Shown here piece after piece: positions 2,059 through 38,512 of a stretch of 64,000 bases of DNA. Within the stretch, counting starts at the first letter, position 1. Each line of letters begins with the position of its first letter. The DNA lies in the NCBI GenBank assembly GCA_049642065.1, contig JBAROK010000056.1, forward strand, positions 1,072 to 65,071, written 5' to 3'. The stretch comes from Candidatus Omnitrophota bacterium. Its GTDB lineage: Bacteria > Omnitrophota > Gorgyraeia > Tantalellales > Tantalellaceae. Both the position numbers and the translations under genes were made by a program. The notes beneath the pieces are model-generated. The model was not told the origin of the DNA. It was given only the letters and a program-made list of their open reading frames with translations, and made no database searches.

Positions 2059-4035
2059 ATGATAGTAGTTCCCCTTATTGGATTAGCTGGTATGGTCTTC
2101 GCTCTTATTACATTTCTTCTGGTCATGAAGAACCCGGAAGGCACGGACAAGATGAGAGACATCTCTCATGAAGTGCACAACGGTGCCATGATCTTCCTTG
2201 CCCGTGAATACCGTATTATATTTGTTTTTATCGTGATCATGTTCGCTATTATGGCAAAGTTCCTGTCCTTAACGACCGGGATAGCGTACATATCCGGCGC
2301 CTTCTGTTCGATGCTTGCCGGGTTCATTGGAATGAAAGCAGCTACCCGTTCCACCGCAAGAACATGTGAAGCCGCCAGAAGCTTCGGAGCTCCAGAAGCT
2401 CTTTGCGTGGCTTTTAAAGGCGGATCCGTAATGGGAATAACTGTCGCGGCTCTTGGCGTCATCGGTGTAGGGATCTGGTTCCTCGTAACAAAAGATACGG
2501 GCATCATCACCGGGTTTGCGCTTGGCGCCAGTTCTATAGCTCTTTTTGCTCGTGTCGGTGGCGGTATATTCACAAAAGCCGCAGATATGGGATCCGACCT
2601 CGTAGGTAAAATAGAAGCCGGCATCCCCGAAGACGACCCCCGTAATCCAGGCGTTATCGCCGATAACGTCGGAGATAATGTCGGTGATACTGCCGGTATG
2701 GGTGCGGACCTCTTTGAATCTTACGTAGGTTCGGTTATAGCTACCATGGCTATAGGTGCGGCGATGATGAACCCGCTTACGGCAATGTCCTTTCCGCTGA
2801 TACTTATAACGATAGGGCTGGTTGCCTCCATGCTCGGCGTGCTCTCAATAAATCTTCTCAAGAACCTTAATCCACAGACCGCGCTAAGGAATTCTACACT
2901 TATATCCGCCCTGCTCTTCTTAGCAGGAGCGTTCATGCTCTCGAAAATGATGTTCGGCGGCATAAACCAGTTCTGGGCGATATTCGCCGGGCTTGTAGCA
3001 GGTATTCTGATCGGGTTTGAAAGCGAATATTTTACATCCGGAAAACCTATCAAGGAAATAGCTAAAAGCGCTCAATCCGGACCAGCAACTACCATAGTAT
3101 CGGGTCTTGCCGTAGGTTTTGAAAGCACTATACTGCCGGTACTGACCATCAGCGCAGCTATGCTTGTTTCATATCATTTCAGCCAGCTTTACGGTATAGG
3201 GCTTGCTGCTGTCGGTATGCTGTGCACTATAGGAATAGTGATGTCCACCGATTCGTACGGTCCGATAGCCGATAATGCCGGCGGTATAGCCGAAATGGCC
3301 GGACTTGATAAAGACGTGCGCAAGATCACCGATAAACTCGATTCGCTCGGTAATACGACCGCTGCCATAGGTAAAGGGTTTGCTATAGGTTCAGCGGCTC
3401 TTACGGCACTTGCTCTTTTTGCCGCGTTTCAGAAGGTCACTGGTCTTAAAGCTATTGATCTCATAAAACCTCTGCCGGTAGCCGGGCTTTTCATAGGCGC
3501 TCTGGTCCCCTTCTCAATAGCGGCAATGACGCTCAAAGCCGTCGGAAGAGCTGCCGATAAGCTCGTACAGGAGATCCGCCGTCAGTTCAGGGAAATTACG
3601 GGTCTTATGGAAGGAACAGCTAAACCTGATACACAGGCGTGTATAGATATTGCCACTAAAAGCGCTCTTAACGAAATGGTCCTTCCGGGCATTACAGCGA
3701 TAATAACACCAGCTCTTGTGGGAATAATACTCGGTGTTGAAGCTCTTGGAGGTTTTCTTGCCGGAGCTACGGTATGCGGCGTGCTCTTGGGCATAATGAT
3801 GGCTAACGGGGGCGGCGCGTGGGATAACGCGAAGAAATGGATAGAAGAAGGCAACCTCGGAGGAAAAGGTACCGAAACCCATCAGGCCGCAATAGTCGGT
3901 GACACTGTCGGAGATCCTTTTAAGGACACGACAGGCCCGGCAATGAACATCCTGATAAAGCTTATGGGCATGGTATCCCTCGTTTTCGGCGGGGTATTCC
4001 TTTTGGCACATGAATGGTTCATGGGTTTATTCTAA
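2059..4035 (+). CDS. hppA: Membrane-bound proton-translocating pyrophosphatase, K+-dependent type.
   Basis: The signature DNVGDNVGD is present and [18 protein letters not shown] carries Ala at the K+-dependence position. There are at least 15 predicted TM helices. RBS GAAGGAG lies 8 nt upstream. Confidence 0.9.
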
Positions 4036-4055: not shown

Positions 4056-4583
4056 ATGGATCTCGATAAAGTAATCCGTAAAGTCCCGAATTTCCCTAAG
4101 CCTGGTGTGCTTTTCTATGACGTGACCAGCATATTCCTTAATCCAGAAGCTTTTGATCACGTAATATCACGCATGGAAGATATTTATAAAGATGTCGAAC
4201 TCGATGGCATCGTAGCGATTGAAAGCAGGGGGTTCATTCTTGGGGCTCCTTTCGCGCTAAGAAGATCTCTCCCTCTCGTACTTGCCAGAAAAAAAGGTAA
4301 ACTCCCCGGGGATACCGTGGAACAGATCTACACTTTGGAATATGGAGAAGAGACGCTTGAACTGCACAAATCGGATATCAACCCCGGGAAATGGCTTATC
4401 GTAGATGACCTTATCGCTACCGGCGGTACGCTTGAAGCGGTGGCAAAGATGATAGAAGCTCAGGGCGGAGAAGTTGCCGGTATTTTCTCGATGATAGGCT
4501 TGCCCTTCCTGAACTATATGGACAAGATAAGCCGCTACAGCCCGAAGACACTAATAGATTATCAGGGAGAACACGTTAAATAA
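4056..4583 (+). CDS. apt: Adenine phosphoribosyltransferase.
   Basis: PRPP-binding motif LIVDDLIATGGT is present. Overall APRT-like, 175 aa. Confidence 0.85.
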   Translation: MDLDKVIRKVPNFPKPGVLFYDVTSIFLNPEAFDHVISRMEDIYKDVELDGIVAIESRGFILGAPFALRRSLPLVLARKKGKLPGDTVEQIYTLEYGEETLELHKSDINPGKWLIVDDLIATGGTLEAVAKMIEAQGGEVAGIFSMIGLPFLNYMDKISRYSPKTLIDYQGEHVK

Positions 4584-5502
4584 GGCCCTTAAGATCTAAC
4601 CCCTTATAAAGGACCAAATGGTCCTGCGACTGTATAAGGGGTTTTTTCTTCTTCCAGAATTCTTCATAAACAAATTCTGTTATTTCCTCTTTCTGCGGCT
4701 TGGTATATTTATAGACGTTGGGATACAAAAGTATCATCCATACTACCGCCATGAATTTTTCAAAATCGTTCACGAAAAACCTTACACGGTTAGTCCTTGA
4801 AAGTATTTGAGCGTTTTTAAAAACACTGTTTCTTTGAAGCTCTTCCTTAAACTCCAGAAGGTTCTGGTCGTTATGGCGACCGAAATATTTTCCCACGAAA
4901 TGGTCATAAAGCCAGGTAGTGGTATCCTTGTCCCTGCCATCAGCGGACATGAGAACTATATGCATCGCCCCTTTCCCGGCCAAGATCTTTTTATAAAGGT
5001 TCTGAATTATAGTGTGCCATTTCTCTTCTTCACAGTAATACAAAGAATGGTGTAGGGTTATTAGATTGACTTTCTTCTCGCCAAGTTTTTGTTTCAGGAA
5101 GGAATCCGTTCTGGATAGGCTGCTAAAAGCCTTATTGTAATCATCGCATATCGTAGTTACATGATCGGTATTCTGCCGGGATACGCGTTCTTTAACTATA
5201 TCCAGCGCTTCTTCCTCCACATCAAACAGGTAAAGACCTCCCCTGAACGCGGTTTCCAGTATCCTGAACTGCGGTTCGTCACTGGATCCTATCGACAGCG
5301 CACGCAAGGCTTTCGACAGATCAAAAGCTTTGCTAAGTGTCCTTATTACCTTTGCTAGCTGTTCACCTATATCAACCTTATCGTTGCTATAACACGACCA
5401 TACCTTGTCTTCCTGGTACATCTTGGAGTCACCTATCTTGACCCCCTGTTCTATAAGCTTTTTATCCTTTTTTGACAACATTACTTTCTCCTCCCCTGTC
5501 AT
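4576..5502 (-). CDS. Hypothetical protein, possibly a class I SAM-dependent methyltransferase fold.
   Basis: A motif-I-like RALSIGSSDEP and an acidic beta2 end LYLFDVEEE are visible. No confident family assignment. Confidence 0.3.
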   Translation of the reverse strand: MTGEEKVMLSKKDKKLIEQGVKIGDSKMYQEDKVWSCYSNDKVDIGEQLAKVIRTLSKAFDLSKALRALSIGSSDEPQFRILETAFRGGLYLFDVEEEALDIVKERVSRQNTDHVTTICDDYNKAFSSLSRTDSFLKQKLGEKKVNLITLHHSLYYCEEEKWHTIIQNLYKKILAGKGAMHIVLMSADGRDKDTTTWLYDHFVGKYFGRHNDQNLLEFKEELQRNSVFKNAQILSRTNRVRFFVNDFEKFMAVVWMILLYPNVYKYTKPQKEEITEFVYEEFWKKKKPLIQSQDHLVLYKGLDLKGLI

Positions 5503-8733: not shown

Positions 8734-10665
8734 TTACTTAGATACAGCCTCTTTTTCGAACACGAAAGGTGAAATATAATCACCATGCTTTTTTTGGCAC
8801 TCTTCAAGGCGCTTTTTCTGATCTTCCATAGCTTTCAGAAAAACATGAGGCGTGTCGAATACCTTGGTATGATATATATCCATTATCCTGACCTTTTTCG
8901 CCAAGCGTTCGGGAATCCTCATCGTGAACTGTTCTTCGTACTGTTCTTTTGTATAATCATCACCAAGCACTTCTTTGAACAACTTAACAAGATCATCGTA
9001 TTTAGGTATATATCCACACGGCGTCTCGATCGCATCGGTTTCGCCATTAACACGCAGCTCCATCCATTTCACCCATACATGCTTATCCTTGATACCGTTC
9101 AGATATTTCCCGTCCTTACCCCTAAGGAAATAGTTTACATGAAAGATCAGTGGCGGTTTTTTAATGCCTTTTACTATATCCAGGTTGTTCTGTATATATC
9201 TGCCTATAGGTATGGAAAGAAAATCAAGGTTCGCCATAAGGTTAAACTTACGGACACCTTCTTGCCCTAATGTAGCAGCCGTTGTCTCGGATTCTATAGT
9301 CGCTGCCTGGGTCAATATCCCATGCGCCCAGTCAAAAGACTGTTCTACCGGCATATTTGTATCAGAATCCCTTCCTCCGTATATAATGCCTCCAACTTCA
9401 ACGCCATCGGGATTCTCAATGTTCTTGTCACAGTTCTTGAGTTCGCTTATCTGTATAGTATAACGCGCATTCTTGTGAGCGTACGGTACATCGTTATCAT
9501 CCGGACCCTTTTTACCCGTAGACCATTTGCCGGAAAAATTCAAGCCCTCTCCGGGAGAAGGCCTACCGTCACCTAGCCAGCGGGGATTATTATCGTTATC
9601 GACAAGCACATTTGAGAAAATAATTTCACTTGGTGTAGTTAACGCTTCAGATATCGCTGGGTCGTTCTTCTCGCTCACATCCTGTATTATCCCGAAAATG
9701 CCTTTTTCCACGTTCACGGCACGGATATTCCCGTCTACATTACGCAGGTAAGCTATATCGTCACCGATAATTTGCTCACCTTCGAGCATAGCTGTTGCAG
9801 TTTTACCGCAAGCGCTAGGAAAGGATCCGGTAAAATAAGTTACTCTTTTCTTGTCCGGTCCATGCACGCCCATCACGAACATATGTTCGGTGAGCCAGCC
9901 TTCCTCCGAAGCTCTCTTGATCGCAAGACGCATAGCCAATTTCTTCAGGCCCACCGTGTTACCGGCGTACTGGGTGTTCGTACTATATACCATCTCCTCA
10001 GCGAGGTCTATGTATACCCGGCGGTTATATACATCCTTACTTACGCCGTTCTCCAAAATTCCTGCGGTATGCAGAAACCTGAAAAATTTTCCCGATCCGC
10101 CCAGTTTACGAAACTGTTCGTATCCACTGCGATACAATATACCTTCTGAATGCGCAACGTAGGTTGAATCCGTTATTTGAACAGCGGATATTGAGAATTT
10201 TGAATCCGTAGGGCCAAGACAGAAGAAACATACATACATCTCTTTACCCTTCATCGCCCCTTTGAAAAGTTCATGCACTTCTTTAAGCCCTTTTTCACGG
10301 TCCTCCGATTTGATATCAGACCCCAGGACCTCATCCGGCCTTAAAAGGTATTTCGTGTTAGATTTATCCCTTGCCTGGTCGTAATAACCATCAAAATGGA
10401 TCGTATGCCCTTTCGTTGACAGTTGCTTTTCTTCTCCCAGTTCCAAGGATCTAGCGCGCAGATACGCTGCATCTTCAGGAGTATCGGTCCTGACAAAAAC
10501 CGAATCCGGATCGCACAGTTCGACGTATTTCGCCACAAAATCATGCATTTTAGGGTTATCCAAGGCTTCGAGTTTTTTGAAATTCTCTTCACCACACTTA
10601 TTTTTTAACAGTTCCACATATTCAGTTTTCATATCTCTTCTTACCTTTCTTTTATTCTTCCACAT
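8734..10665 (-). CDS. pckG: Phosphoenolpyruvate carboxykinase, GTP-dependent.
   Basis: Kinase-1a motif [14 protein letters not shown] is present. The protein is 643 aa and GTP-PEPCK-like throughout. Confidence 0.85.
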
Positions 10666-18776: not shown

Positions 18777-21700
18777 TTACAGTGAGTGCAGGAACTGCTC
18801 AGAGGCACGCATTTTTTCGTCAAGGCCCTTCCAAGAAACGCGTTCTGCAGGTTTTAGGACGATCATACCATTTACAAGTCTTCCCGGAGCCTGCTTGAAA
18901 GCGTCTATAATATCACTGTCTTTTGTTATTATACCCAGGATAGCCGCAATCATATCTTTTAACCTGGCCCGGCGTTCTCTTTTTAGGTTATTTCTCTTAT
19001 CGAAAAGATCCATTACAGATAAAGCTAGAGCAGAACGAATATAGAACGGAACTGCAGTAAATGTTTCACTTGCGATCTCGCCTTCTTCTTTTATACAAAA
19101 TATCCTGGATTTATATTTTGCTTTCAAATCCCCGTTATTCTGATCGAAGAATTTTCCGTCTGCGAATATTAATGCTCTGACATTTTCATCTTCATCTACA
19201 AGCCGCAGCAACGTACCTATAGCCTTATCCCTGCTTGAGTCTCCCACAAGATAAGGTAGCGGCACTATAGAAAAACCGTAATCCCCCTTATACATTCTTC
19301 TCTTCAGTTCGCTTGCCATCTGAACTTCTTTCGCGAACACTGTTTCATTATAAACAGGATACGCTATTATGCGGGTCTCTTTGGGAAAACGTGCTGCGCC
19401 CAGCATTAACCTGGACAGCCATTGTCCCATAGTATCCACATTCTTTTTCCTTCTGACGGTTTCTTCTTTTTCCCTGGCAGTCTGTTCGGAATGGCTACTT
19501 CCCGAGTACATTTCCGAATCCAACACATCGCTGGCCGTTTCGGAAAAATCATCGTCACTCATTACTCTTTCTTCAAAACCGCTTGCCACTTCCCTGTTGA
19601 ACAATACTTCCAGCCTTTCCAACACATCGCTTAACATCTTTCCGCCAACATCTTTTCCGTTCTCCGGTGGCATATCTTCGCTTTCAGCCTTGTCTGGGGT
19701 TGATACATCTGCTTTGGTATCAGCTCCGATTATCCCAAGATCTTTCAAGTCCTCTTCGGTTAGATACTTGAACGTAAGATCCATGATATGTTCGACGGCT
19801 TCCATAGCATTTTTGACACGTTTAGTCGCCGGAGAATCCCCAACTACCGAATATATTCGTTTTCTTATCCTGTCGAAACTTAAATAAAGTCGCCTCATCT
19901 GTTTGCGAGCAATAAATTCTACCATTTCGGCTGATTTCCGTTCTCTTTTTTCAAAAAGAACGGCGCCAAATGCTTCTATCTGACTGAGCTTATCTATAAA
20001 TTCCGGTTTATTCAAATCCATGAAGATCGATTTCAGCCCGGTACCTTGAGACTTCCCGGGCACCATATCTTGTATACAAAATTCCTGCAGGTTACGCATA
20101 AGAGCTGGATAATATAGACCGGTAATATCGTTTATATCTTTTGTAATGGTTTCTCTAGTAATCGTCGTAGTCTCTCCCGCCTTGGCGCCTCTACTTCTAT
20201 ACTGGACAGGCAACTCTTCACCAAACATAATAATTGTACCTCTCATGTTCCGTGCCTTAGCTTCCATCATTGCTTTATCGGCTTCCTGAATGGCCTCCAT
20301 AGCGTTGCCGAGATTCTCTTTTTCTATGCCTCTAACACCAATAGTCACTGCTATTTCGTCATTTTCCCTAAGGCCTTCGGGCCTTAACTTCTTTACGTTA
20401 GTCTGGATATTGCGGGCTACTATCTTGGCATTCGCAGCGGTAGCTTCGGGAATTACCACCATGAACTCCTCTCCACCCCAACGGAAAACGACATCAGAAC
20501 CACGAACCGTCCTGAGAATAGCGTTAGATACCGCTGTCAGCACCCTGTCACCGAAAGTATGTTTTTCCGGATAAGTGTCGTTAAAACGTTTAAATTTATC
20601 AATGTCAATAAAAAGTATAGACGCCTGGCTCATGGTAGTAAGACGCGGATTGACTTTATGTTCAAAATACCACTTATTAAATAGTCCCGTGAGCTGATCC
20701 CTGTACTTCGCCTCCTGGGCGGCCCAGCTGTTGATGAGTTTTATCCTGACCTTGTCACCTTTCATGGGGCTTATATCGAAAAGCATCTCCTGGACCATTT
20801 CTGTACTACCGTATTTATCCGCATCCGCTTCGAGGTTCTGGGCTTCAATATTCTCTGGCAGTTTAGACCTGTCAAAGATACGCAGGCTTCTAAGACCGTA
20901 CCCAAGCGTATCGTTAACTATAATCTCACCGTTCTCATCGGTATCTATTACCCATTGCCATCCGCATTCCCCGCGACTTGCATACTCTCTCTGCTCTTCT
21001 ATTAATCCTTCCAATATTTCCTTCTGTTTAGTTGGCGTGATGCCTGGTCTATACAAACGCCTCAAAACTCTACACATATATGATTTCTCGTTTTTTCCTC
21101 TTACAGTAGAAGGATTGGACATATAACCGGAAAAAGTTCTGCTACATGAAAACTGACATGTGAGAACACCCTGAGGAACATCCAGTATATAATCAAAGGT
21201 GTCAACATCGCCCATTCCCCTTAGCTGCTGTTCGACTATCTGCCCTTCATAAGTACGCAGATACGCTCTTTTCCTGGCTATACCCTTGGCGAAATCAACG
21301 CCAGTATTACTCTCCCGGGAAAAGAGTTCTCTTAGTATATCCGCCATGTCCTTGTTACCCGTATATCCACTGGCTGGTTCTAGATCTGCAGAAGGATCCA
21401 TGAATCCGTATACACGTTTCATGCAATCTTCATCTGTCATGCCCATTAATGCTGGAATGCTTATTACGCTGTATTCCCGGTTAGTATCGTAATCTCTAGG
21501 AACATTAGGAGCAGGCCTGTATCCCATGGATCTAAGAAGCAGAATTGCCCGGTCTCCCAGACTTACAACTATGCCCTCCTTATCATCACTTTTCGCAACG
21601 TCTATAGCAGCATTGACTCTCAACAGGAAAGAAGCCGCAAAATCCGTATCAATGCCGAGATTACTCCAAAGGCTCTTTATCTGTATGGTAGATGCCAGGA

Positions 21701-23261
21701 AGGACAACGCGCCCTCCGACAATATTCCTTGATTGCCAGAGAGAAGGTTCATATAAGGACTCACGTAGCCCTGCTCATTGACAAATTCCGGGTTGATAGC
21801 GATATACGATATACCGTTCGCTTCAAGAATGTCGTGTAAATTTTTCGAATGAAAACCGCCTGTAACCAGAATGCTTGCTTCAGCACCGGTTTCTAGCATA
21901 TTCTGCTGCACGTTATATACAAAAGTTTCATCTCTTTTATCTGCCAGAGCGTAGAACACCGTCATATTAGAGAAGCCGTAGGATACGTATAAAGCGTCCT
22001 CTTCTAAATTGGATACTTCACCCGAGTTTGCCTTTAAGAATGCCAACACTTCGGCAATATTTACGGTTCTTTTCGCGGTTTCTAGCTCTTGCCTGTTCAA
22101 TTTCAGGTTAAACATCTTTTCAAGCAGCTGCACCTGACGGATATACCCCAGGGTTCTTCTCTCTTTTTCTGTACTGCAAAGCACTTCGCTTAACCCGTCC
22201 TCTATTTGGCTCAGTTCCGTAAAAAGGACCTCTTCGTCAATGCCCCCGTAAACAGCCAGGTATTTACTATAGGCATAAAGGTTTGGATATAAACCGGCAT
22301 CTATCCCCACCTCTTTTGCTTTTTCCATAAGGAAAATGTGAAATTCGCCCTCTGTTATCTGACCAGATTCATACAGCCCTGCGGAGCTAAGAAGCTGGAG
22401 GCGTTCGTATTTTGAAAGCCTTTCAGAAAGAATGCTTACAATTATTTGTCTTTCGTGTTCGGCTTTTTCAAAATCAATATCTCTTTCTTTAACGAGAAGA
22501 TCCGACAGCTTAACCAGATTCGGAGTTTTTTCGATAGGATAGGAATACTTCGTTGCCATCCTGAAAAGATACGGCAGATATTTTTCTAGCCGGATGTTGT
22601 TGGAGTCAAAAAGTATTTGGTTATTTAGAAACGTTTTAAGGTCGACACTAAAAGTTTCTTCTTTGACCGCGTTAAAAATAGAGGAAGCTTTAAAAAGAAA
22701 CTCATCTATCTTATCCTTGTATTCGAGAATGGTCCTGTAGACCAAGAGGTTATCTTCGTAAAGATCGGTATTCTCTATCCCTGCAAGTTGAACTTTTTCT
22801 GGATGGAATACGCGATACGATTCAGCCCCGGTGACTCTTCCGGACTTCATGTACTTATTTACTATATCCCTTTTTACGAATGGATCCTTTATGTTTTCAA
22901 GGATATCCAAATCGTAATCACCGGTAGCCCCCTCAAGATTCACAAGGCTTACATCGTATTTTTTAACTATCCAATCTATAAGACCGTACACCGCTTTTTG
23001 TGCGGCATAGTTACAATGCGCGTCTTTTATATGGAAAACTACTTTGCCGCTTTTACCATTGAACCTTGAATCTACATAACCCAGGCGTTTAGGAATAAGA
23101 ACATTCTCAACATTAATAGTTGCCGCCTCAGATGACGAAGTATATTGATAAGCTGCGTGTTTATCTTCACTGCGGGAATAGGCAATATCCACCGGTACAG
23201 TATTTGCGATAAATACCGCCAGGACTATGACAGATATTATTTTTATAAAACGTTTGTTCAT
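18777..23261 (-). CDS. Large (1494 aa) signal-anchored multidomain protein with a central GGDEF diguanylate cyclase domain. The flanking regions are unassigned.
   Basis: The N-terminal hydrophobic segment is MNKRFIKIISVIVLAVFIANTVPV. The GGDEF domain spans roughly aa 850-1015: LTGLFNKWYFEH...SILFIDIDKFKRFND...RGSDVVFRWGGEEFMVV, with the RxxD I-site and an intact GGEEF encoded near 20462-20476. The N-terminal region has an HxxDxH...Q...LVNLEG pattern vaguely ChaN/Tiki-like. The C-terminal 480 aa are unrecognised. Confidence 0.7.
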   Translation of the reverse strand: MNKRFIKIISVIVLAVFIANTVPVDIAYSRSEDKHAAYQYTSSSEAATINVENVLIPKRLGYVDSRFNGKSGKVVFHIKDAHCNYAAQKAVYGLIDWIVKKYDVSLVNLEGATGDYDLDILENIKDPFVKRDIVNKYMKSGRVTGAESYRVFHPEKVQLAGIENTDLYEDNLLVYRTILEYKDKIDEFLFKASSIFNAVKEETFSVDLKTFLNNQILFDSNNIRLEKYLPYLFRMATKYSYPIEKTPNLVKLSDLLVKERDIDFEKAEHERQIIVSILSERLSKYERLQLLSSAGLYESGQITEGEFHIFLMEKAKEVGIDAGLYPNLYAYSKYLAVYGGIDEEVLFTELSQIEDGLSEVLCSTEKERRTLGYIRQVQLLEKMFNLKLNRQELETAKRTVNIAEVLAFLKANSGEVSNLEEDALYVSYGFSNMTVFYALADKRDETFVYNVQQNMLETGAEASILVTGGFHSKNLHDILEANGISYIAINPEFVNEQGYVSPYMNLLSGNQGILSEGALSFLASTIQIKSLWSNLGIDTDFAASFLLRVNAAIDVAKSDDKEGIVVSLGDRAILLLRSMGYRPAPNVPRDYDTNREYSVISIPALMGMTDEDCMKRVYGFMDPSADLEPASGYTGNKDMADILRELFSRESNTGVDFAKGIARKRAYLRTYEGQIVEQQLRGMGDVDTFDYILDVPQGVLTCQFSCSRTFSGYMSNPSTVRGKNEKSYMCRVLRRLYRPGITPTKQKEILEGLIEEQREYASRGECGWQWVIDTDENGEIIVNDTLGYGLRSLRIFDRSKLPENIEAQNLEADADKYGSTEMVQEMLFDISPMKGDKVRIKLINSWAAQEAKYRDQLTGLFNKWYFEHKVNPRLTTMSQASILFIDIDKFKRFNDTYPEKHTFGDRVLTAVSNAILRTVRGSDVVFRWGGEEFMVVIPEATAANAKIVARNIQTNVKKLRPEGLRENDEIAVTIGVRGIEKENLGNAMEAIQEADKAMMEAKARNMRGTIIMFGEELPVQYRSRGAKAGETTTITRETITKDINDITGLYYPALMRNLQEFCIQDMVPGKSQGTGLKSIFMDLNKPEFIDKLSQIEAFGAVLFEKRERKSAEMVEFIARKQMRRLYLSFDRIRKRIYSVVGDSPATKRVKNAMEAVEHIMDLTFKYLTEEDLKDLGIIGADTKADVSTPDKAESEDMPPENGKDVGGKMLSDVLERLEVLFNREVASGFEERVMSDDDFSETASDVLDSEMYSGSSHSEQTAREKEETVRRKKNVDTMGQWLSRLMLGAARFPKETRIIAYPVYNETVFAKEVQMASELKRRMYKGDYGFSIVPLPYLVGDSSRDKAIGTLLRLVDEDENVRALIFADGKFFDQNNGDLKAKYKSRIFCIKEEGEIASETFTAVPFYIRSALALSVMDLFDKRNNLKRERRARLKDMIAAILGIITKDSDIIDAFKQAPGRLVNGMIVLKPAERVSWKGLDEKMRASEQFLHSL

Positions 23262-23408
23262 ATATGGTTAACTAACAGTTAATCTATTGTTAATTTTTGC
23301 ATTTTATTCTCTTAACGTATATAGTAGAGTAATTATTATATAGTGTGCCAATATATAAGTCAACTAACTTTTTGATGTCTTAAAATAGGTGGGTATTTGG
23401 ATAAAAAG

Positions 23409-23452
23409 AACCCCACGAAAAGAGTGTTATATCCTTTCGCGGGGCTCTTACA
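23409..23452 (-). terminator. Putative terminator downstream of PFOR.
   Basis: Imperfect hairpin gaaccccacgaaa...tttcgcggggctc immediately after the PFOR stop. Confidence 0.35.
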
Positions 23453-23470: not shown

Positions 23471-26400
23471 TTAGGCTTCTATTTTTTCTGCTTCACAAGA
23501 GGCCAGTTTACGCTCAGCAAGATACTTATACAAAGCGTAATGGTCGTTTACCAGCTGCTGGGCTTTTTCCATAAGTTTCTGCGCCCTTTCTGGATTCGAC
23601 CTTTTCAGGATATTGAAGCGGTTCTCTCCTGCCATGTATTCCTCCAGTTTGATGCTCGGTTCCTTGCTGTCCAGCGACAAGGGATTCTTGCCATCAGCAC
23701 AGAGGGTCGGGTTATACCTGAATAGCGGCCAGTGACCGGAATCGACAGCCTTCTTCTGCTCATCATACCCTTTTGTCATGTTGATACCATGAGCAATACA
23801 ATGAGAGTATGCGATTATGATAGAAGGACCATCATATTCCTCTGCCTCGATAAAGGCTTTTATAGTTTGCATGGGATTGGCTCCGAGCGCTACTTTAGCC
23901 ACGTATACGTAGCCGTAACTTATGGCCATAAGCCCAAGGTCTTTCTTCCCTATCGGTTTTCCACTGGCAGCAAATTTGGCTACCGCGCCCATCGGTGTAG
24001 CTTTGGAAGCCTGCCCACCGGTATTCGAATACACTTCAGTATCAAGAACAAGAACATTTACGTTCCTACCCGAAGCTAGCACGTGATCCAGACCGCCGTA
24101 GCCGATATCGTATGCCCAGCCGTCACCACCAAGCGCCCATACGGATCTTTTGATCAGATAATCCACGACACTGACCAGGTCTTTGCACTCCGGGCATTTG
24201 CATTTTTCGAGAAGTTTTTTGGCTTCATCTACTCTTTTTCTCTGGGCTTCTATATCTATCTGTGAATCCTGTTTAGCTTCTTTTATCTCTTTGAGAAGCG
24301 TAACAAGAACTGCATCACACGAACCTTTTTCGACTATTCTGTCAACAAGTTCGCCCGCGTATTCCTTGTACTTATCCACCGTTAGTCTCATACCATAAGC
24401 GATCTCGGCATTATCCTCAAAGAGCGAATTGTTCCATGTAGGACCGCGGCCATCCGAACGAGTGGTATACGGTGTGGTCGGAAGGTTACCGCCATATATC
24501 GAGGAACAACCAGTAGCGTTCGCAATGACAGCCCTGTCCCCGAAAAGCTGCGAAAGAAGCTTAACATAACTGGTCTCACCGCAACCAGCACACGCTCCCG
24601 AAAACTCAAACAAAGGCTTTACGAACTGAATGCCGTTCATGACGGCCTTATTGTAAAGTGCCGGATCCGTCTCGGGTATCCCAAGAAAGAACCTGAAGTT
24701 CTCGTTTTCCAGCTCCCTCAACGGTTCCTGTGGGTGCATGCTTATAGCTTCCTTTGCCTTCATCGGACAGTTTTCAACACAGGCACCGCAACCCGTACAA
24801 TCTTCCGGAGCGACCTGAAGAGTATAAACATATCCATCCTTCGGTTTCGGCTTAATAGCGGAATGTTTGAACGTTTCCGGCGCGCCTTCGAGCTGTTTCT
24901 CTTCATACATCTTAGCGCGTATTACCGCATGAGGGCACACCATAGTACACTTACCGCACTGTATGCAGGTTTCCTGGTTCCATACAGGTATATTTAGGGC
25001 GATATTCCGTTTCTCATACTGGGTAGTACCGGTAGGCCACGTGCCGTCAACCGGCATCTCGGATACCTTTACTGTATCTCCTTCGGCTTTCATCAGCTTT
25101 ACAGTAGTGTTCTTGACAAAGTCTGGCGCATCGGCCGGAACTATTTGTTCCTCTTCGACCTTACCCGTAAGTTTGTCAGGAACACTGACTTCTTCTATTT
25201 TTCCGATCGCCATATCAACCGCTTTAATGTTCATTTCGACGACTTTCTCGCCCTTATTCCCATATGTCTTTTTTATGGCTTTCTTGATCGCATCCAGCGC
25301 CATTTTCTCGTCAATCACTTTGGATATCTTAAAGAAAGCCGTCTGCATGATCACGTTGATACGTTCGCCAAGGCCCACATCTCCGGCGATCTTTACAGCG
25401 TCTATAACATAGAATTTAAGTTTTTTATCAATTATCTGTTTCTGCACTCTGGGAGGTATGTTCTCCCAAATAGTATCCTTGCCATGCATAGAAGTCAGGA
25501 GAAATATCCCGCCATCGTCAAGGTTCTTCAGCATGTTGTATTTTTCAAGGAAAGAAAAATTGTGGCATGCCAGGAAATTCGCTTTAGATATAAGGTACGA
25601 GCTTCTGATGGGCTTCTTACCGAACCTAAGGTGAGAAATGGTAACTGCACCCGCTTTTTTGGAGTCGTAAACAAAATATCCTTGCGCGTTGTTCTCTGTC
25701 TCTTCCGCTATGATCTTGATCGAGTTCTTGTTAGCCCCGACCGTACCGTCTGCTCCGAGCCCATAGAACATAGCCCTGTAAGTCTCCTCGCTTTCGGTAC
25801 TGAAAGAGGGGTCATAATCAATACTGGTGTTGGTTACGTCGTCGTCTATACCGACCGTGAAATGATTCTTAGGCTTTTTCTGAGATAGGTTATCGAATAC
25901 ACCTTTTATCATAGCAGGCGTGAATTCTTTTGAACCAAGACCGTACCTTCCGCCAACTATCGTCGGATAGTCTTTGAAAGGAGCAAACCCTTCTCCCATT
26001 GCCTCTCCAACAGCAGTCCTGATATCTTCATAAAGCGGCTCCCCGAGACTGCCGGGTTCTTTGGTTCTGTCAAGAACGGCTATTTTGTTAACGGTCTTCG
26101 GGAAAGAGTTGATAAAAGTCTTGGTGTCGAACGGTCGGAAAAGACGAACCTTTAAGAGCCCAACTTTTTCTCCCTGAGCGTTCAAGTATTCTACGGTTTC
26201 ATGAACGGCTTCGCTACCCGAGCCCATTATTATGATGAGCTTGTCAGCGTCTTTAGCTCCCACATAATCAAAAAGATGATATGCTCTTCCGGTAATTTTA
26301 GCGAACTTGTCCATAGCCTTCTGTACGATAGCCGGGCACTCGTTGTAATACTTATTCACCGACTCTCTTCCCTGGAAATAAACGTCCGGGTTCTGGCTGG

Positions 26401-27052
26401 TGCCGCGAAGTACCGGGTGTTCCGGATTCATGCCTCTTTCTCTATGCAGGCGGACAAGATCATCATCTATCATCTGCCTCATGTCTTCATGAGTAAGTTC
26501 TTCTACCTTTTGTATCTCGTGCGATACGCGGAAACCTTCGAAGAAATGCAACATAGGAATACGTGATTCAAGAGTAGCTGCCTGTGAAATAAGTGCCATA
26601 TCCATAGCTTCCTGGACGCCTCCGGAAGCAAGAAAACCCCAACCGGTGCCTCTGGCTGCCATAACATCTGAATGGTCACCGAATATCGACAATGCCTGGC
26701 AGGCTATTGACCGTGCGGCAATATGAAAAACCGTAGGCACAAGCTCGCCAGCTATCTTATACATGTTAGGTATCATAAGAAGCAACCCTTGAGAAGCCGT
26801 GAACGTGGTAGTAAGAGCACCTGTGGTCAGAGCTCCATGTACTGCGCCGGATGCTCCACCTTCGGATTGCAGCTCAACAACGGTGGGGATCGTTCCCCAT
26901 ATGTTCTTCTCGCCTTTAGCCGATTTTTCGTCGGATATCTCCCCCATACCAGAAGATGGCGTTATAGGATAAATGGCTATAACCTCGTTAGTAGCATGAG
27001 CTACATGAGCTACCGCGCTATTTCCATCATGCGGGACCATATTGCGTTTCAT
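23471..27052 (-). CDS. por: Pyruvate:ferredoxin (flavodoxin) oxidoreductase, single-chain.
   Basis: 1193 aa. The N-terminus MKRNMVPHDGNSAVAHVAHATNEVIAIYPITPSS is canonical NifJ/PFOR. Two ferredoxin-like CxxCxxCxxxCP motifs and a TPP-binding GGDGW region are present. Confidence 0.9.
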   Translation of the reverse strand: MKRNMVPHDGNSAVAHVAHATNEVIAIYPITPSSGMGEISDEKSAKGEKNIWGTIPTVVELQSEGGASGAVHGALTTGALTTTFTASQGLLLMIPNMYKIAGELVPTVFHIAARSIACQALSIFGDHSDVMAARGTGWGFLASGGVQEAMDMALISQAATLESRIPMLHFFEGFRVSHEIQKVEELTHEDMRQMIDDDLVRLHRERGMNPEHPVLRGTSQNPDVYFQGRESVNKYYNECPAIVQKAMDKFAKITGRAYHLFDYVGAKDADKLIIIMGSGSEAVHETVEYLNAQGEKVGLLKVRLFRPFDTKTFINSFPKTVNKIAVLDRTKEPGSLGEPLYEDIRTAVGEAMGEGFAPFKDYPTIVGGRYGLGSKEFTPAMIKGVFDNLSQKKPKNHFTVGIDDDVTNTSIDYDPSFSTESEETYRAMFYGLGADGTVGANKNSIKIIAEETENNAQGYFVYDSKKAGAVTISHLRFGKKPIRSSYLISKANFLACHNFSFLEKYNMLKNLDDGGIFLLTSMHGKDTIWENIPPRVQKQIIDKKLKFYVIDAVKIAGDVGLGERINVIMQTAFFKISKVIDEKMALDAIKKAIKKTYGNKGEKVVEMNIKAVDMAIGKIEEVSVPDKLTGKVEEEQIVPADAPDFVKNTTVKLMKAEGDTVKVSEMPVDGTWPTGTTQYEKRNIALNIPVWNQETCIQCGKCTMVCPHAVIRAKMYEEKQLEGAPETFKHSAIKPKPKDGYVYTLQVAPEDCTGCGACVENCPMKAKEAISMHPQEPLRELENENFRFFLGIPETDPALYNKAVMNGIQFVKPLFEFSGACAGCGETSYVKLLSQLFGDRAVIANATGCSSIYGGNLPTTPYTTRSDGRGPTWNNSLFEDNAEIAYGMRLTVDKYKEYAGELVDRIVEKGSCDAVLVTLLKEIKEAKQDSQIDIEAQRKRVDEAKKLLEKCKCPECKDLVSVVDYLIKRSVWALGGDGWAYDIGYGGLDHVLASGRNVNVLVLDTEVYSNTGGQASKATPMGAVAKFAASGKPIGKKDLGLMAISYGYVYVAKVALGANPMQTIKAFIEAEEYDGPSIIIAYSHCIAHGINMTKGYDEQKKAVDSGHWPLFRYNPTLCADGKNPLSLDSKEPSIKLEEYMAGENRFNILKRSNPERAQKLMEKAQQLVNDHYALYKYLAERKLASCEAEKIEA

Positions 27053-30534: not shown

Positions 30535-31314
30535 TTACCTCTTAGATTCAAAATATTCTATCATAGTCTGGCGCATCAGGTCTCCGTCGAAATACGGCCC
30601 GACCAGTTTGCCGCCGTGTCCTTTAGCGCCCCTTACGGGTCCAGGCCCGGTCCCCATAGGCGCAGGCTGAGGAGCTATGCCTCCCGAAGCCAGTATCCCG
30701 ATTATAGAACAGGCGCTTTTCCATTTATCAAAACATCTGGAAATACCCTTAGCTAACGCATGAAAAACTATTCGTGCTCCCTTATCGTCTTTTGGGGCGC
30801 GGTAAAGCATATAATTGTACAGGGCTTTTTCTGTCATCGCTTTATCGCCGGAAGACTTTCCGGATGCAATGATGACCGGTACATTATTGCTGGGCGGCAT
30901 CGTATATGTGCACGACGCTCCCTGGGGAAACGGTATGTTCATATGCATGTATCCCCTCTGCCATAGCCTCATTCCATGTTCCATGGCATCGGCAATGGCT
31001 TTTACGAAGTTCAGCTCAGTTTGGGATTTGCCAACCTTATCATAATTTTTCATTATACTCGCGGAAGTAAGAACCGGCTCGCCTATATCCCCCGGCATAA
31101 GAAGCCCCCTGGAACCTTGGACTTCCACGCCATTTATCACCACTGAATCCTGCCATTTTTTCCATGCTTTGGTTATCAGAAAAGATATCTCTTGGGCAAA
31201 ATCATTTTTGCTTTCTAGAGAAGCGAAAAGTTCCGGCTCTTCAGCGGAGGCATATACTCCTAACGAAGATATGAAGAACACAAATGATAGGACCAACACT
31301 TTGAATATTCTCAT
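30535..31314 (-). CDS. Secreted hypothetical protein.
   Basis: Signal peptide is MRIFKVLVLSFVFFISSLGVYASA. No recognisable family. It overlaps the upstream GT8 gene by 4 nt. Confidence 0.45.
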   Translation of the reverse strand: MRIFKVLVLSFVFFISSLGVYASAEEPELFASLESKNDFAQEISFLITKAWKKWQDSVVINGVEVQGSRGLLMPGDIGEPVLTSASIMKNYDKVGKSQTELNFVKAIADAMEHGMRLWQRGYMHMNIPFPQGASCTYTMPPSNNVPVIIASGKSSGDKAMTEKALYNYMLYRAPKDDKGARIVFHALAKGISRCFDKWKSACSIIGILASGGIAPQPAPMGTGPGPVRGAKGHGGKLVGPYFDGDLMRQTMIEYFESKR

Positions 31315-37021: not shown

Positions 37022-38512
37022 ATGGTTCTAACGATGAGTTTATCAAAAGAAAAGACTAACCTTCTAATCGGGCTGGCGGTTCTTACCGTTTCATTTGCCC
37101 TCATCAGGCTAAAAACGCTGGGGCATCTGTTGATGTGGGATGAGGCGTGGAACATCCTTTCCTTAAGAGCGTTCATTGCAGAGGCCGTAAGAGACCCTTT
37201 TTACTGGTACTACCGGTTCCACCCGCCCTTATATATGTTTTTTGCGAAGTTCCTTAATCCTTTCGGCGATAATTTTGCCGTAAGAGCGGAAGCGCTTTCC
37301 CTGGTTTTCTCATATGGAACGTTTATTACGGTATATTTTTTAAGTTACCGTATCGGTGGCTGGAGATACGCCTGGCTAAGCGGACTCATCCTGTGTTTCA
37401 TGCCGATATCAATAGGCTACGACAGCTGGGTAAAAAGAGACAGCTTGGCTATGTTCATGGGGTACCTGTCTCTCTTACTAGTGGTAGACAAAAGGTTCCT
37501 ATTCTCCGCAATAGCGCTGGGACTTTCTTTTTTAAGCAAGGAAAGTGCGCTTTTTTTCAGCTTGCCGGTCGCGTTTATGATCTTTACAACAGGCGGCAAG
37601 AAAAAAACCAGGATATTCGTGATGTTCTTACTGATCATTGCCCTAATGACGGCCTGGTGGTATATCCCTTTAAGCAACCTTACAAAGAACGTGAACGCTT
37701 TTTACCTTTCAGAAGATTATTACGGGAAAATGTGGATTCATTCACCGTTATATTACATTAAGAAACTTGTGCCTGATATCGGTATTGGCGGGATCTTGCT
37801 CTTTATTGTGGGACTCATCTTTCTGCCGTATTTTTCCAGGATAAAAAGACGCGCTGAAATATCCCTGCCTGTAATCATATGCTTTTGCGTATACGTGCCC
37901 ATATCTCTGGTTATTGCCACAAAGACCCCTTGGCTTTCTTATTCGGCTGCTCCGGCCCTTGCAATGATAGCAGGCGGCGGAGCGCTGTTTATATTCGGAA
38001 GAGCTTATTTTTCACGGATCATGCGTTCTTTACTTTTTCTTGTGCTGGCTTTCATCGTATTCACGGGAGTTACCTTTTCTTATCCTGTGTATCACATGAA
38101 AACCTATCCTAATGGATGGCCGGGCGCACAATCTTCCTGGAAACTTGCTGAGTACCTTAACGAACATATGAAAGATGATGACAGGTTAATGATAACCGAT
38201 TTTGCGTATTGGCGGATGCCAACTTGCCCTGTTTTTATTTACTACTGGAAGCCTCACGAGATTATGATAATAAAAGGCACTCAAACTGCTGCAACGATAC
38301 TTAAGAGAATGAAGGAACTCAAGATATCCTGGTTCGTAGTGGCAGATTCACCGGATCCTGCATACAATTACCACGCTCTTGTAAAAAAGATGGAGGTCCT
38401 GCTTCCAAATAAACCTACTCCTGTGGGATGGTCTTACGTGTGGAACGTCTCTACGACCTTGTCTGATGATTCTTCAGAAAAGACGCCTGCTGAACTTCTT
38501 CCTGCGACTTAG
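37022..38512 (+). CDS. ArnT/PMT-family (GT39/GT83-like) polytopic membrane glycosyltransferase.
   Basis: At least 10 TM helices. The N-terminal LGHLLMWDEAWNI loop is typical of the dolichyl/undecaprenyl-phosphate-sugar transferase fold. Confidence 0.5.
   Translation: MVLTMSLSKEKTNLLIGLAVLTVSFALIRLKTLGHLLMWDEAWNILSLRAFIAEAVRDPFYWYYRFHPPLYMFFAKFLNPFGDNFAVRAEALSLVFSYGTFITVYFLSYRIGGWRYAWLSGLILCFMPISIGYDSWVKRDSLAMFMGYLSLLLVVDKRFLFSAIALGLSFLSKESALFFSLPVAFMIFTTGGKKKTRIFVMFLLIIALMTAWWYIPLSNLTKNVNAFYLSEDYYGKMWIHSPLYYIKKLVPDIGIGGILLFIVGLIFLPYFSRIKRRAEISLPVIICFCVYVPISLVIATKTPWLSYSAAPALAMIAGGGALFIFGRAYFSRIMRSLLFLVLAFIVFTGVTFSYPVYHMKTYPNGWPGAQSSWKLAEYLNEHMKDDDRLMITDFAYWRMPTCPVFIYYWKPHEIMIIKGTQTAATILKRMKELKISWFVVADSPDPAYNYHALVKKMEVLLPNKPTPVGWSYVWNVSTTLSDDSSEKTPAELLPAT

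Follow-up and report, generated by a model that had tools for sequence, protein, structure and literature searches.

A GGDEF domain carried by a member of a very large, previously undescribed Omnitrophota protein family

In the 64,000-nucleotide stretch of Omnitrophota DNA analysed here (the window), one gene encodes a protein of 1494 aa in which a GGDEF domain lies between two long flanks, behind a hydrophobic N-terminus. What are these flanks, and on which side of the membrane would the GTP-using cyclase that they enclose be working?

The gene and its GGDEF domain

The reading frame found, which begins with ATG, was the 1494-aa one originally predicted (Table 1), and annotation of the neighbours also agreed with its proposed location between PFOR and lipA-gcv. 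PFOR lies upstream (23471..27052), and the genes for lipoyl synthase, GcvT, GcvH, GcvP1, GcvP2 and lipoate ligase follow downstream. Three full-length orthologues (identities of 97, 59 and 34%) have the same architecture, and the order DnaX-RecR-DUF7847-PFOR-(GGDEF gene)-LipA-Gcv is retained at the orthologue loci, on which grounds an assembly or fusion artefact was rejected. A terminator-like hairpin just past the PFOR stop codon, read by eye because its 11-nt loop kept it from being called by the automatic scan, suggests that the GGDEF gene may form its own transcription unit. PAS and HAMP domains occur in the window in other signalling proteins.

Table 1. Features of the GGDEF gene, its 5' flank and its product
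Feature	Amino acids	Position	Strand	Remarks
Whole ORF		18777..23261	-	1494 aa + stop codon, ATG start; full-length orthologues P0001, P0002, P0007
Terminator-like hairpin		23402..23444	-	CCCCGCGAAAG ... CTTTCGTGGGG + TTCTTTTT; directly 3' of PFOR stop codon
Promoter-like site		23335..23363	-	TTGACT-17-TATAAT, 11/12, ~75 nt 5' of ATG; consensus match only
Sec-type signal peptide or N-in signal anchor	1-29	23175..23261	-	MNKRFIK + hydrophobic core + ...DIAYS|RSED
N-module (chassis head)	55-540	21642..23099	-	EreA/ChaN/TIKI/TraB-fold alpha/beta core with helical insertion (model)
DAHCNY, first acid/His pair of putative active site (D80, H82)	80-85	23007..23024	-	Residue conservation
All-helical lid-like insertion in N-module	165-458	21888..22769	-	Model secondary structure; invariant R443 near end
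TGGFH, second catalytic-type His (H471)	467-471	21849..21863	-	End of strand 462-468
Cargo-specific region	541-852	20706..21641	-	GGDEF orthologue group only; conserved domain aa ~660-852
GGDEF diguanylate cyclase domain (cargo)	853-1005	20247..20705	-	PF00990 E 5e-34; TIGR00254 E 5.4e-35
I-site RxxD + active-site GGEEF	920-933	20463..20504	-	RGSDVVFRWGGEEF; motif read-out
Poorly conserved linker	1006-1285	19410..20246	-	Partly helical, partly acidic and disordered
C-module (chassis tail)	1286-1494	18780..19409	-	Rossmann-like alpha/beta domain + helices, end ...EQFLHSL-COOH

The GGDEF domain was the sole Pfam match of the protein (117.8 bits, cutoff 23.8), and the NCBIfam matches were of the GGDEF type only, including a PleD-family model over the domain (E 5e-30). 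Together with the motifs, this supported the central cyclase with GGEEF and RxxD that had been proposed: GGEEF occupies aa 929-933, RxxD (RGSD) lies exactly five residues upstream at aa 920-923, and DIDKFKRFND spans aa 886-895. Seven of the eight orthologue-group sequences have GG[DE]EF, P0002 having SGEEF, and seven have RxxD, P0005 having RKGED. The domain looks catalytically intact from these motifs, and the cargo would be a canonical diguanylate cyclase, putatively product-inhibitable at its I-site.

A conserved head and tail around variable cargo

The original prediction could name no family for the flanks and, for the case of a type II anchor, proposed novel sensory domains. Neither aa 1-852 nor aa 1006-1494 matched a Pfam family at E <= 1, but the sensory proposal did not hold, because thousands of proteins with unrelated cargo begin with a counterpart of the N-terminal ~540 aa, and at least 121 of the 181 family members examined close with one of the C-terminal ~210 aa. 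Matches of the flanks to PAS, GAF, HAMP or Cache domains, which had been named beforehand as what would make the protein a routine cyclase, did not appear. Whether the flanks exist apart from GGDEF had also been asked, and both ends were found in thousands of proteins having no such domain. At E <= 1e-3 a profile of the head matched 10,295 cluster representatives, of which 7,310 remained at E <= 1e-30, and the head was N-terminal in all 181 members. The cargo between head and tail measured 46-6808 aa and was unrelated among members, including GT2, PGM, PPDK_N, GH130, CheR, SpoIIE and His_Phos domains in relatives and a novel ~190-aa domain plus GGDEF in the 1494-aa protein; chassis-only members of 887-954 aa also exist. 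All 78 retrieved genome loci came from Omnitrophota MAGs, some labelled otherwise; even this sample showed 3-4 paralogues per genome, and the neighbours of the loci included no conserved secretion or partner gene. The 1494-aa protein is not a routine diguanylate cyclase: it is a member of a very large, previously undescribed Omnitrophota family, whose architecture we confidently describe as a fixed chassis (head and tail) with variable cargo.

The ~850-aa N-terminal region, previously treated as one, actually divides into two: the chassis head, aa ~55-540, and after it a region specific to the cargo. The head matched no Pfam or NCBIfam model at threshold; below it, independent weak matches to PF04187 and PF01963 appeared. 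H82, Q88, E110, G111, G161, R443, G468, G469, F470, H471, P491 and Y503 are invariant in the family and D80 is near-invariant, the HxxDxH...Q...LVNLEG pattern noticed earlier being present as H77-x-x-D80-x-H82, Q88 and L106-VNLEG111. E110 lies 28 residues past H82, the same spacing as in RRSP (H3902/E3930) and Bcr135 (H85/E113), and R443 and H471 are 28 residues apart, versus 29 for R4001-H4030 of RRSP; the RRSP and Bcr135 residues and the superfamily signature, 2His/2Glu+Arg, were taken from PMC6254334. What had been proposed as a weak ChaN/Tiki/TraB likeness was thus strengthened by a TIKI-type fold in the model, by the signature and spacings and by the two weak Pfam matches. As modelled, the head core is an EreA/ChaN/TIKI/TraB hydrolase fold with an acid-x-His/Glu/Arg/His constellation as a putative active site, whose residues were equated on the basis of their conservation, place on the strands and spacing.

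The closest known system to the head is the EreA/ChaN/TIKI/TraB-PrgY-GumN superfamily (EreB/EreC, Bcr135/136, Tiki1/2, TraB/PrgY, ChaN, HopBA1, RRSP). The acid-x-His, Glu (+28), Arg and His (+28) at strand ends fit its signature, and a helical lid-like insertion is also found in Ere enzymes such as EreC. However, the head has Asp in place of the first Glu, its insertion (~290 aa) is far larger, and it always has a signal peptide before it, with variable cargo and a dedicated C-module fused behind.

The C-module aligned with 105 other members of the family at their C-terminal ends (hhalign probability 98.9%, E 1.8e-17, 200 columns), both sides finishing at the C-terminus, and the tail closes with a conserved [S/A][L/A/V]-COOH. 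Its AF2 model had a pLDDT of 82 and a pTM of 0.80; a structure search gave no specific or informative structural relative. The cargo-specific region (aa 541-852) is missing from family members outside the GGDEF orthologue group and had no Pfam or PDB match. Alignment of the orthologue group delimited in it a conserved ~190-aa domain (aa ~660-852) with invariant C730, C766-G-W and IFDRxKLP, which is probably a dimerisation or regulatory partner of the cyclase. In P0003 and P0004 the linker after the GGDEF domain is interrupted by an insertion of ~650 aa.

Topology of the chassis and the site of cyclase action

A Kyte-Doolittle scan confirmed that the sole TM-like stretch is N-terminal (aa ~1-29, 19-residue hydrophobicity 2.3, against a maximum 19-residue mean of 1.29 elsewhere), and the AF2 model placed a helix at aa 3-19 and, after it, a disordered linker at aa 22-44. 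A Sec-type N-terminal signal was present in 172 of the 181 members; the family means before and after the hydrophobic core were 3.65 and 0.97 for K/R and 0.35 and 2.33 for D/E, and net charge was more positive before the core in 170 of the 172. An AxA-like signal-peptidase-type site, A[WYFH]A, occurred in 73 members, the putative site of the 1494-aa protein being A-Y-S, not AxA. The charge distribution predicts an N-in orientation with the bulk outside the cytoplasm, export being read heuristically from charge, hydrophobicity and AxA sites. The topology puzzle raised originally, a GTP-using cyclase apparently placed where GTP is lacking, was thus borne out, but the idea that a type II anchor would keep the bulk cytoplasmic must be reversed, since such an anchor (N-in) also places it outside. 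As the flanks belong to a chassis shared across the family, the paradox extends to the family as a whole.

The explanation that we tentatively prefer, at somewhat less than even confidence, is that the protein is an enzyme carrier exported by Sec and that its cargo acts in a compartment where nucleotides are present, perhaps inside a host or prey cell. The chassis consists of a Sec-type signal peptide or N-in anchor, a ~490-aa head with its hydrolase-fold alpha/beta core and ~290-aa helical insertion, and a ~210-aa C-terminal alpha/beta module, with cargo enzymes slotted between head and tail; the PGM, PPDK_N, GH130, amylase and GGDEF members have no TM-like segment between head and cargo. Sec would carry the protein over the cytoplasmic membrane, the chassis would set its final location, and the Tiki-like hydrolase might process the protein itself or act on an envelope or host substrate. 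The cyclase would make c-di-GMP only where GTP is present and, once exported, would most plausibly meet it within an attached host or prey cell. Export as such seems somewhat more likely than not from the charge asymmetry (170/172) and the 73 A[WYFH]A sites, although the 1494-aa protein has A-Y-S at the putative site and its hydrophobicity of 2.3 would equally fit an uncleaved anchor. Action in another cell is doubtful, but would fit the proposal that Omnitrophota live as predators or parasites (PMC10066038). Preprints describe long Omnitrophota proteins in which a signal peptide precedes Pfam domains of like metabolic and signalling kinds, and a conserved T2SS/pilus locus and pilZ genes adjoining giant genes. 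Against these readings, all recognisable cargo (GGDEF, PGM, PPDK_N, CheR, GT2, SpoIIE) needs NTPs, SAM or sugar nucleotides, which argues for a cytoplasmic location, an RxxD I-site and stable synteny with housekeeping genes are what one would expect of an endogenous regulator rather than an effector, and the 78 loci gave no conserved secretion or partner gene nearby.

A serious rival, to which we give roughly a one-in-three chance at most, is a cytoplasmic cyclase whose helix tethers it to the inner membrane face or is unused for export. The Tiki-like head and C-module would then be a scaffold or a ligand-sensing/regulatory unit, c-di-GMP would be made in the own cytoplasm, and the family would serve to hold many cytoplasmic enzymes at the membrane. 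Such tethering agrees with the nucleotide- or cofactor-dependent cytoplasmic chemistry of every recognisable cargo, with the conservation of GG[DE]EF and of the RxxD feedback site and with vertical inheritance in a housekeeping syntenic block. It agrees too with preprints, in which pilZ beside giant Omnitrophota genes points to endogenous c-di-GMP signalling and (2026 preprint) nearly half of the long Omnitrophota proteins are interpreted as inner-membrane-anchored with their bulk cytoplasmic. However, it would violate the positive-inside rule in 170/172 members, given the K/R excess before the core and the acidic stretch after it, and 73 members have signal-peptidase-like sites. The 1494-aa protein also has no second TM segment to return the chain to the cytoplasm. 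Several TIKI-superfamily relatives (Tiki, PrgY, ChaN), moreover, work outside the cytoplasm.

Export followed by retention in the periplasm or on the surface is unlikely. There the head would be the working enzyme, e.g. an esterase or peptidase on envelope or host-surface polymers, and the GGDEF cargo, inactive as a cyclase, would be a nucleotide-/ligand-binding or oligomerisation module. The signal features of the N-terminus, the strict family-wide conservation of the putative catalytic constellation beside variable cargo and the SGEEF of P0002 would suit it, as would the link of giant Omnitrophota proteins with target-cell surface degradation in a preprint and PMC10066038. Nevertheless, the metal-/GTP-binding motifs, GG[DE]EF and the I-site have survived divergence to 34-59% overall identity, which is not expected of a domain without a catalytic role, and the same argument would then be required for PGM, PPDK_N, CheR and other cargo. 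Finally, an ordinary sensor cyclase flanked by divergent PAS, GAF, Cache, HAMP or CHASE domains missed by sequence methods, though the usual architecture of most large GGDEF proteins and in line with the PAS and HAMP proteins of the window, is very improbable and largely refuted (aa 541-852 lying outside the structure models), since no such family was found at E <= 1 (E <= 10 for the mid region), the N-module model is of TIKI type and not a PAS/GAF/Cache fold, and the flanks are common to thousands of proteins without GGDEF.

Comparison with known systems

In MARTX toxins, conserved N- and C-terminal regions flank a variable effector array, and the effectors use nucleotides of the target-cell cytoplasm. 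The Omnitrophota family resembles them, by analogy only, in its conserved ends, variable cytoplasm-type enzyme modules and TIKI-fold domain, the latter occurring in the MARTX effector RRSP (PMC6254334). Its ends are not homologous to those of MARTX, it has the N-terminal Sec signal that MARTX lacks, and its TIKI fold is a fixed head instead of a swappable effector. GGDEF being the sole Pfam match, no glycine-rich repeats, cysteine protease domain or T1SS-type architecture was detected in the 1494-aa protein.

CdiA and other two-partner exoproteins are likewise large proteins with a Sec signal, a conserved N-terminal domain and an enzymatic module, which is delivered into the cytoplasm of another bacterium. 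CdiA carries its variable module at the C-terminal tip, has FHA repeats and is encoded beside its partner gene CdiB, whereas here both ends are conserved, GGDEF is the only Pfam match and the 78 loci have no conserved partner gene. The GGEEF, the RxxD five residues upstream and DxDxFKxxND are shared with I-site cyclases of the PleD/WspR type. Unlike these, the 1494-aa protein has no REC, PAS, GAF, HAMP or TM sensor, and its GGDEF is cargo in a signal-peptide-bearing chassis predicted outside the cytoplasm.

A full-text literature search returned no paper that connects TIKI, TraB or erythromycin esterase with Omnitrophota, and TraB, ChaN, erythromycin esterase and a conserved N-terminal module did not turn up in term searches of the two giant-protein preprints. 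The long and giant proteins described from the same phylum (West-Roberts et al. 2023 preprint; 2026 complete-genome preprint; Seymour et al. 2023) share similar Pfams (PGM, glycosyltransferases, methyltransferases, HATPase, HD, PPDK_N, GGDEF) and an N-terminal signal peptide or TM segment, and a like puzzle of topology versus chemistry is discussed. Those studies centred on proteins of at least 10-30 kaa, whereas the best 150 matches to the head profile were of 630-7683 aa.

The gene and its cyclase domain

The 1494-aa ORF (18777..23261, minus strand), here called the query, was the longest of its neighbourhood. A whole-protein Pfam scan returned one domain, GGDEF (PF00990), at aa 853-1005 (E 5e-34, 117.8 bits against a threshold of 23.8), and an NCBIfam scan gave GGDEF-type matches only (TIGR00254, 120.6 bits against a threshold of 37.4). 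Motif inspection placed the active-site GGEEF at aa 929-933 and DIDKFKRFND at aa 886-895, with the Mg/GTP-binding residues D886/D888, N894 and D905 present. An R920-G-S-D923 motif was found exactly five residues upstream of GGEEF; RxxD at this distance from GGDEF is the allosteric I-site and marks the product-inhibited subclass. Every observation of the original prediction, namely the ORF, the GGDEF domain, its motifs, the single N-terminal hydrophobic stretch and the PFOR and lipA-gcv surroundings, was confirmed.

A database search retrieved seven full-length relatives (P0001-P0007, 97-34% identity), and those with a source name were all labelled Candidatus Omnitrophica. The DxDxF[KR]xxN, RxxD and GG[DE]EF motifs were retained in orthologues sharing only 34-59% identity, with the exceptions SGEEF (P0002) and RKGED (P0005), and this retention suggests that the domain is under selection as a working, product-inhibited cyclase. 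The segment that runs straight into it (aa 541-852, the mid region) was seen solely in the GGDEF orthologue group; its conserved portion, aa ~660-852, contains an invariant Cys730, Cys766-Gly-Trp and IFDRxKLP. The mid region had no Pfam match at E <= 10 in any of the seven orthologues, and a PDB sequence-profile search with it returned chance-level matches only. By analogy with other cyclases, aa ~660-852 would most likely be a dimerisation or regulatory partner of the cyclase.

The PFOR gene lies upstream of the query gene, and lipoyl synthase, GcvT, GcvH, GcvP1, GcvP2 and lipoate ligase genes follow downstream. A terminator-like hairpin past the PFOR stop codon and a promoter-like site before the query ATG (Table) suggest that the query gene is probably its own transcription unit. 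No obvious Shine-Dalgarno sequence was found ahead of the ATG (…GTTAACCATATATG), and no paralogues were found within the 64-kb window, where the gene is present in single copy. The orthologues P0002 (59%), P0003 (54%) and P0007 (34%) occupied the same block, DnaX-RecR-DUF7847-PFOR-[gene]-LipA-GcvT..., in which PFOR remained 79% identical, showing that the gene evolves fast yet is vertically inherited. An assembly-fusion artefact was ruled out, because the same architecture occurred in orthologues from independent contigs. When 78 family loci were compared for a recurrent neighbour, such as a secretion partner or an immunity-like gene, no gene family was found in more than 7 loci, and therefore no dedicated partner gene adjoins the family members.

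Table. Sites flanking the query gene, structure matches to the modelled N-terminal module, and mean charges around the N-terminal hydrophobic segment
Feature	Location or entry	Strand	Value	Remark
Terminator-like hairpin	window 23402-23444	-	11 bp	G+C-rich, with T-run; directly past PFOR stop codon
Promoter-like site	window 23335-23363	-	TTGACT-17-TATAAT	near consensus; ~75 nt before query ATG
Structure match	5t09		10.7	HopBA1
Structure match	2rad		10.6	annotated 'succinoglycan biosynthesis protein' (Ere-like)
Structure match	8bqs		10.1	TraB-family protein
Structure match	2g5g		9.4	ChaN
Structure match	2qgm		9.3	annotated 'succinoglycan biosynthesis protein' (Ere-like)
Structure match	6xcq		9.2	EreC
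Structure match	5w6l		8.1	RRSP
Charge before segment	15 residues		K/R 3.65; D/E 0.35	means
Charge after segment	15 residues		K/R 0.97; D/E 2.33	means

A recurrent head and tail around variable cargo

About 40 further proteins of 900-2500 aa aligned to the first ~540 residues of the query only (~25-33% identity, E down to 1e-85), and their other Pfam domains all differed. The domains carried behind this N-terminal module (the head, aa ~55-540), which we call cargo, included glycosyltransferase 2, SpoIIE phosphatase, M50 peptidase, HEAT with CheR methyltransferase, histidine phosphatase, GH130, phosphoglucomutase, metallo-beta-lactamase, alpha-amylase, PPDK_N and HD. A HMMER search of 1.84 billion cluster representatives with a profile of the head, built from an alignment of 28 members (A1), had 10,295 matching proteins at E <= 1e-3, of which 7,310 passed E <= 1e-30; the best 150 (630-7683 aa) all carried the head at their extreme N-terminus.

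The last ~290 residues of the query were likewise conserved in the GGDEF orthologues, even past the ~650-aa inserts of P0003 and P0004. When the last 330 aa of the retrieved family members were clustered, 113 of 159 fell into one group, and profile-profile comparison related the query group to the other 105 C-termini (98.9% probability, E 1.8e-17, 200 columns), both alignments stopping exactly at the C-terminus. A third C-terminal subgroup was also related (94.4% probability, E 9e-8). With three profiles of this C-terminal module (the tail, aa ~1286-1494), both head and tail, together termed the chassis, were detected in 121 of 181 proteins, separated by 46-6808 aa (median 1230), and P0180 (954 aa), P0098, P0010 and P0167 were among those consisting of the chassis only. 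The firmest result, and a very probable one, is the architecture of a signal, a Tiki-fold head, variable cargo and a conserved tail. The original prediction had taken both flanks as regions of this cyclase; Pfam indeed names neither, but head and tail recur in many proteins without GGDEF. Neither Pfam (2025 copy) nor NCBIfam (2026) contained a model for the head, the mid region or the tail.

The extra ~650 aa of P0003 (aa ~1176-1830; contig L001) and P0004 (aa ~1146-1829) lie between GGDEF and the tail and had no precomputed Pfam domains, implying that cargo has been gained or lost there even inside one orthologue group. An amphipathic helix precedes the C-terminus of the family proteins (P0008-P0191; query aa 1490-1494), which in nearly all complete members reads [S/A][L/A/V]-COOH: 82 have SL, 31 AL and 12 AA. 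This ending was also found on many members whose tail escaped the profiles. From its sequence it looks like a candidate recognition tag, which a PDZ-type protease or a sorting factor, for instance, might bind.

Thirteen columns of the head were invariant among the 28 diverse members (G61, H82, Q88, E110, G111, G161, R443, G468-G-F-H471, P491 and Y503) and D80, E147 and E163 were nearly so, within the motifs IQDAHCNYxAQ, LEGG, GxED, R(D) and VTGGFH. The confident AlphaFold model of the head (pLDDT 82, pTM 0.69) showed a small alpha/beta core with a parallel beta-sheet (strands 61-67, 74-80, 106-109, 158-162, 462-468 and 485-491), into which ~290 residues of purely helical structure are inserted (aa 165-458). 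Among the first eight structure matches, seven, representing six different proteins (Table), belonged to the EreA/ChaN/TIKI/TraB superfamily. Weak matches to PF08349 (DUF1722, a YbgA-like helical domain) in 7 of the 28 heads (best E 9.4e-6), presumably located in the helical insertion, did not reappear in seven members re-scanned at E <= 0.01, and this assignment was rejected.

The equivalence of active sites was judged by conservation, strand position and spacing. The 2His/2Glu catalytic motif of the superfamily comprises E3900, H3902, E3930 and H4030 in RRSP, together with the essential R4001, and the counterpart pair of Bcr135 is H85/E113 (PMC6254334). The distance from H82 to E110 in the query is 28, equal to that in RRSP and Bcr135, and that from R443 to H471 is 28, against 29 in RRSP; the first acid is Asp in the query (D80-x-H82), in contrast to the Glu of the superfamily motif. 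The His and Glu residues each lie just past a core strand (74-80, 106-109 and 462-468), and the putative active site of the head is apparently complete. An earlier hunch of ChaN/Tiki/TraB resemblance was borne out in this way by the modelled fold, the structure matches and the residue spacings. The query had no Pfam match at E <= 1 to the clan families PF01963, PF04187 and PF05139, a PDB sequence-profile search with the head gave chance-level matches only, and 5 of the 28 members reached PF04187 (ChaN) or PF01963 (TraB/PrgY/GumN) below threshold (E 0.007-0.0095). Because no existing clan family was reached by the query, and by its relatives only below threshold, the head as modelled would at best be a new family within the Tiki superfamily, and a highly divergent one. 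Among its superfamily relatives, Ere enzymes cleave esters, and Tiki and RRSP cleave peptide bonds.

Export signal and possible sites of action

Topology was analysed in 181 family members by charge, hydrophobicity and cleavage-motif heuristics. In a Kyte-Doolittle scan of the query only the N-terminus looked TM-like, values elsewhere reaching 1.29 at most, and 172 of the 181 members began with a hydrophobic segment; the remaining 9 look like truncated gene calls. In 170 of the 172, the residues ahead of the segment had a more positive net charge than those following it (Table), and an A[WYFH]A motif closed the segment in 73 of the 172 relatives, the query having A27-Y-S29 instead. No twin arginine (Tat) was found in the family N-termini, many having S-R-S-R instead, nor was a G|FTLIE-type prepilin motif or a consistent lipobox. 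These features fit either a Sec signal peptide or an N-in signal anchor, both of which predict an extracytoplasmic position for the remaining chain. As no further TM-like segment was found in the query or in the PGM, PPDK_N, GH130 and amylase members, head and cargo are on the same side of the membrane. The paradox raised at the outset, a GTP-consuming cyclase behind an export signal, therefore stands and extends to GTP-, ATP-, SAM- and sugar-nucleotide-dependent enzymes across the family. A 2026 Omnitrophota preprint meets the same conflict of topology and chemistry for proteins above 10 kaa.

We propose, with moderate confidence for this step, that the protein would cross the membrane by Sec. 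The chassis would then set where it ends up, and hydrolysis by the head would serve self-processing or be directed at a substrate in the envelope or the host. After export an active cyclase can work only where GTP is present, so the most coherent site would be the cytoplasm of a host or prey cell to which the bacterium is attached, a step that we consider doubtful. Generalised to the family, head and tail would form a phylum-wide Sec-dependent chassis exporting thousands of cytoplasm-type enzymes to or into host or prey, with the Tiki-like head as processing or entry hydrolase; kinases, phosphatases, methyltransferases and enzymes acting on sugar phosphates and glycogen would be among the cargo, as would the active diguanylate cyclase of the query. 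We offer this whole as a rather unlikely, speculative reading. CdiA, a Sec-dependent giant protein that brings an enzyme into another bacterium, is a precedent for delivery, as are the Chlamydiae, of the same PVC superphylum, which secrete glycogen-metabolism enzymes into a host compartment. Delivery also fits the fact that HopBA1 and RRSP, structural neighbours of the head, are delivered effectors, the proposal that Omnitrophota are predators or parasites (PMC10066038) and a conserved T2SS/pilus locus reported near giant genes.

The main rival, which we rate as less likely than not, is that the helix merely tethers the protein and that the whole family works at the inner, cytoplasmic side of the membrane. 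In favour of such an arrangement are the chemistry of the cargo, the I-site and the housekeeping synteny; against it are the distribution of charge and the AxA-like sites. That the query is a periplasmic or surface protein with a non-catalytic GGDEF appears improbable, being weakened by the motif conservation. An ordinary sensor cyclase (PAS, GAF, HAMP, Cache, CHASE or REC with GGDEF) is essentially excluded: no sensory or receiver domain was found N-terminal to GGDEF at E <= 1 over the whole protein, and PAS, GAF, HAMP and Cache, which the original prediction had suggested seeking in the flanks as signs of a routine cyclase, had no match there. MARTX-type toxins, which carry a C-terminal T1SS signal and no N-terminal signal peptide, resemble the query in architecture only; neither the glycine-rich A/B/C repeats nor the InsP6-activated cysteine protease was matched (Pfam, GGDEF only), and a Sec-type signal is present at the N-terminus.

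The Omnitrophota are ubiquitous, uncultured, nano-sized bacteria, whose long and giant proteins have often been noted yet are functionally opaque. The finding of one recognisable head in more than 10,000 protein clusters, and of one tail in no fewer than two thirds of the 181 members analysed, offers a practical handle in the form of an annotation profile, defined residues to mutate and chassis-only members of ~900 aa suited to structural and biochemical work. The GGDEF cyclase and the Tiki-superfamily fold are known kinds of component, of which the chassis-with-cargo family and a cyclase predicted to be extracytoplasmic are new forms. Were delivery true, this would be a new kind of system, and its diguanylate cyclase would be the first to serve as an effector between cells, raising c-di-GMP in another organism. 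If nucleotide-dependent enzymes really are exported, episymbionts or predators would have a new route to manipulate or exploit their partners. If the enzymes are not exported, the family would be a new membrane-tethering scaffold and an exception to the topology rules. Either way, a cyclase with a conserved I-site predicted outside the cytoplasm is unusual for c-di-GMP biology. Full-text searches found no literature that connects the TIKI, TraB or Ere fold with proteins of Omnitrophota, term searches of two giant-protein preprints gave no mention of such a head module, and West-Roberts et al. state that N-terminal regions 'generally lack identifiable domains'.

Distribution and genomic setting

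When each GTDB species was scanned through a single genome, 430 relatives were confirmed. Their best 78 loci were all in Omnitrophota MAGs, counting those labelled 'uncultured Planctomycetia', and three to four paralogues per genome were visible within this sample alone. Many loci with typical members (L001, L006, L008 and others) came from TPA assemblies titled 'uncultured Planctomycetia bacterium', and the relative P0045 was labelled Elusimicrobia; these are probably mislabelled Omnitrophota bins.

The window also has genes for an H+-pyrophosphatase, a PEP carboxykinase of the GTP type and a TonB-dependent receptor (2059-4035 (+), 8734-10665 (-) and 54629-56533 (-)), which together with the PFOR and glycine-cleavage genes suggests that the lineage is a diderm, comparatively self-sufficient Omnitrophota and not a minimal symbiont. 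PAS-PAS-HATPase, REC-PAS, HAMP-PAS-HisKA-HATPase and SBP_bac_3-HisKA-HATPase architectures were found at 42820-45770 (-), 51748-53610 (-) and 177-1547 (+), indicating that the organism uses ordinary sensor architectures besides the chassis family. Three ORFs had no Pfam match at E <= 1e-6 (37022-38512 (+), 496 aa; 4576-5502 (-), 308 aa; 30535-31314 (-), 259 aa), and the last of these occupies the same position as an unannotated 263-aa gene of the syntenic contig L079.
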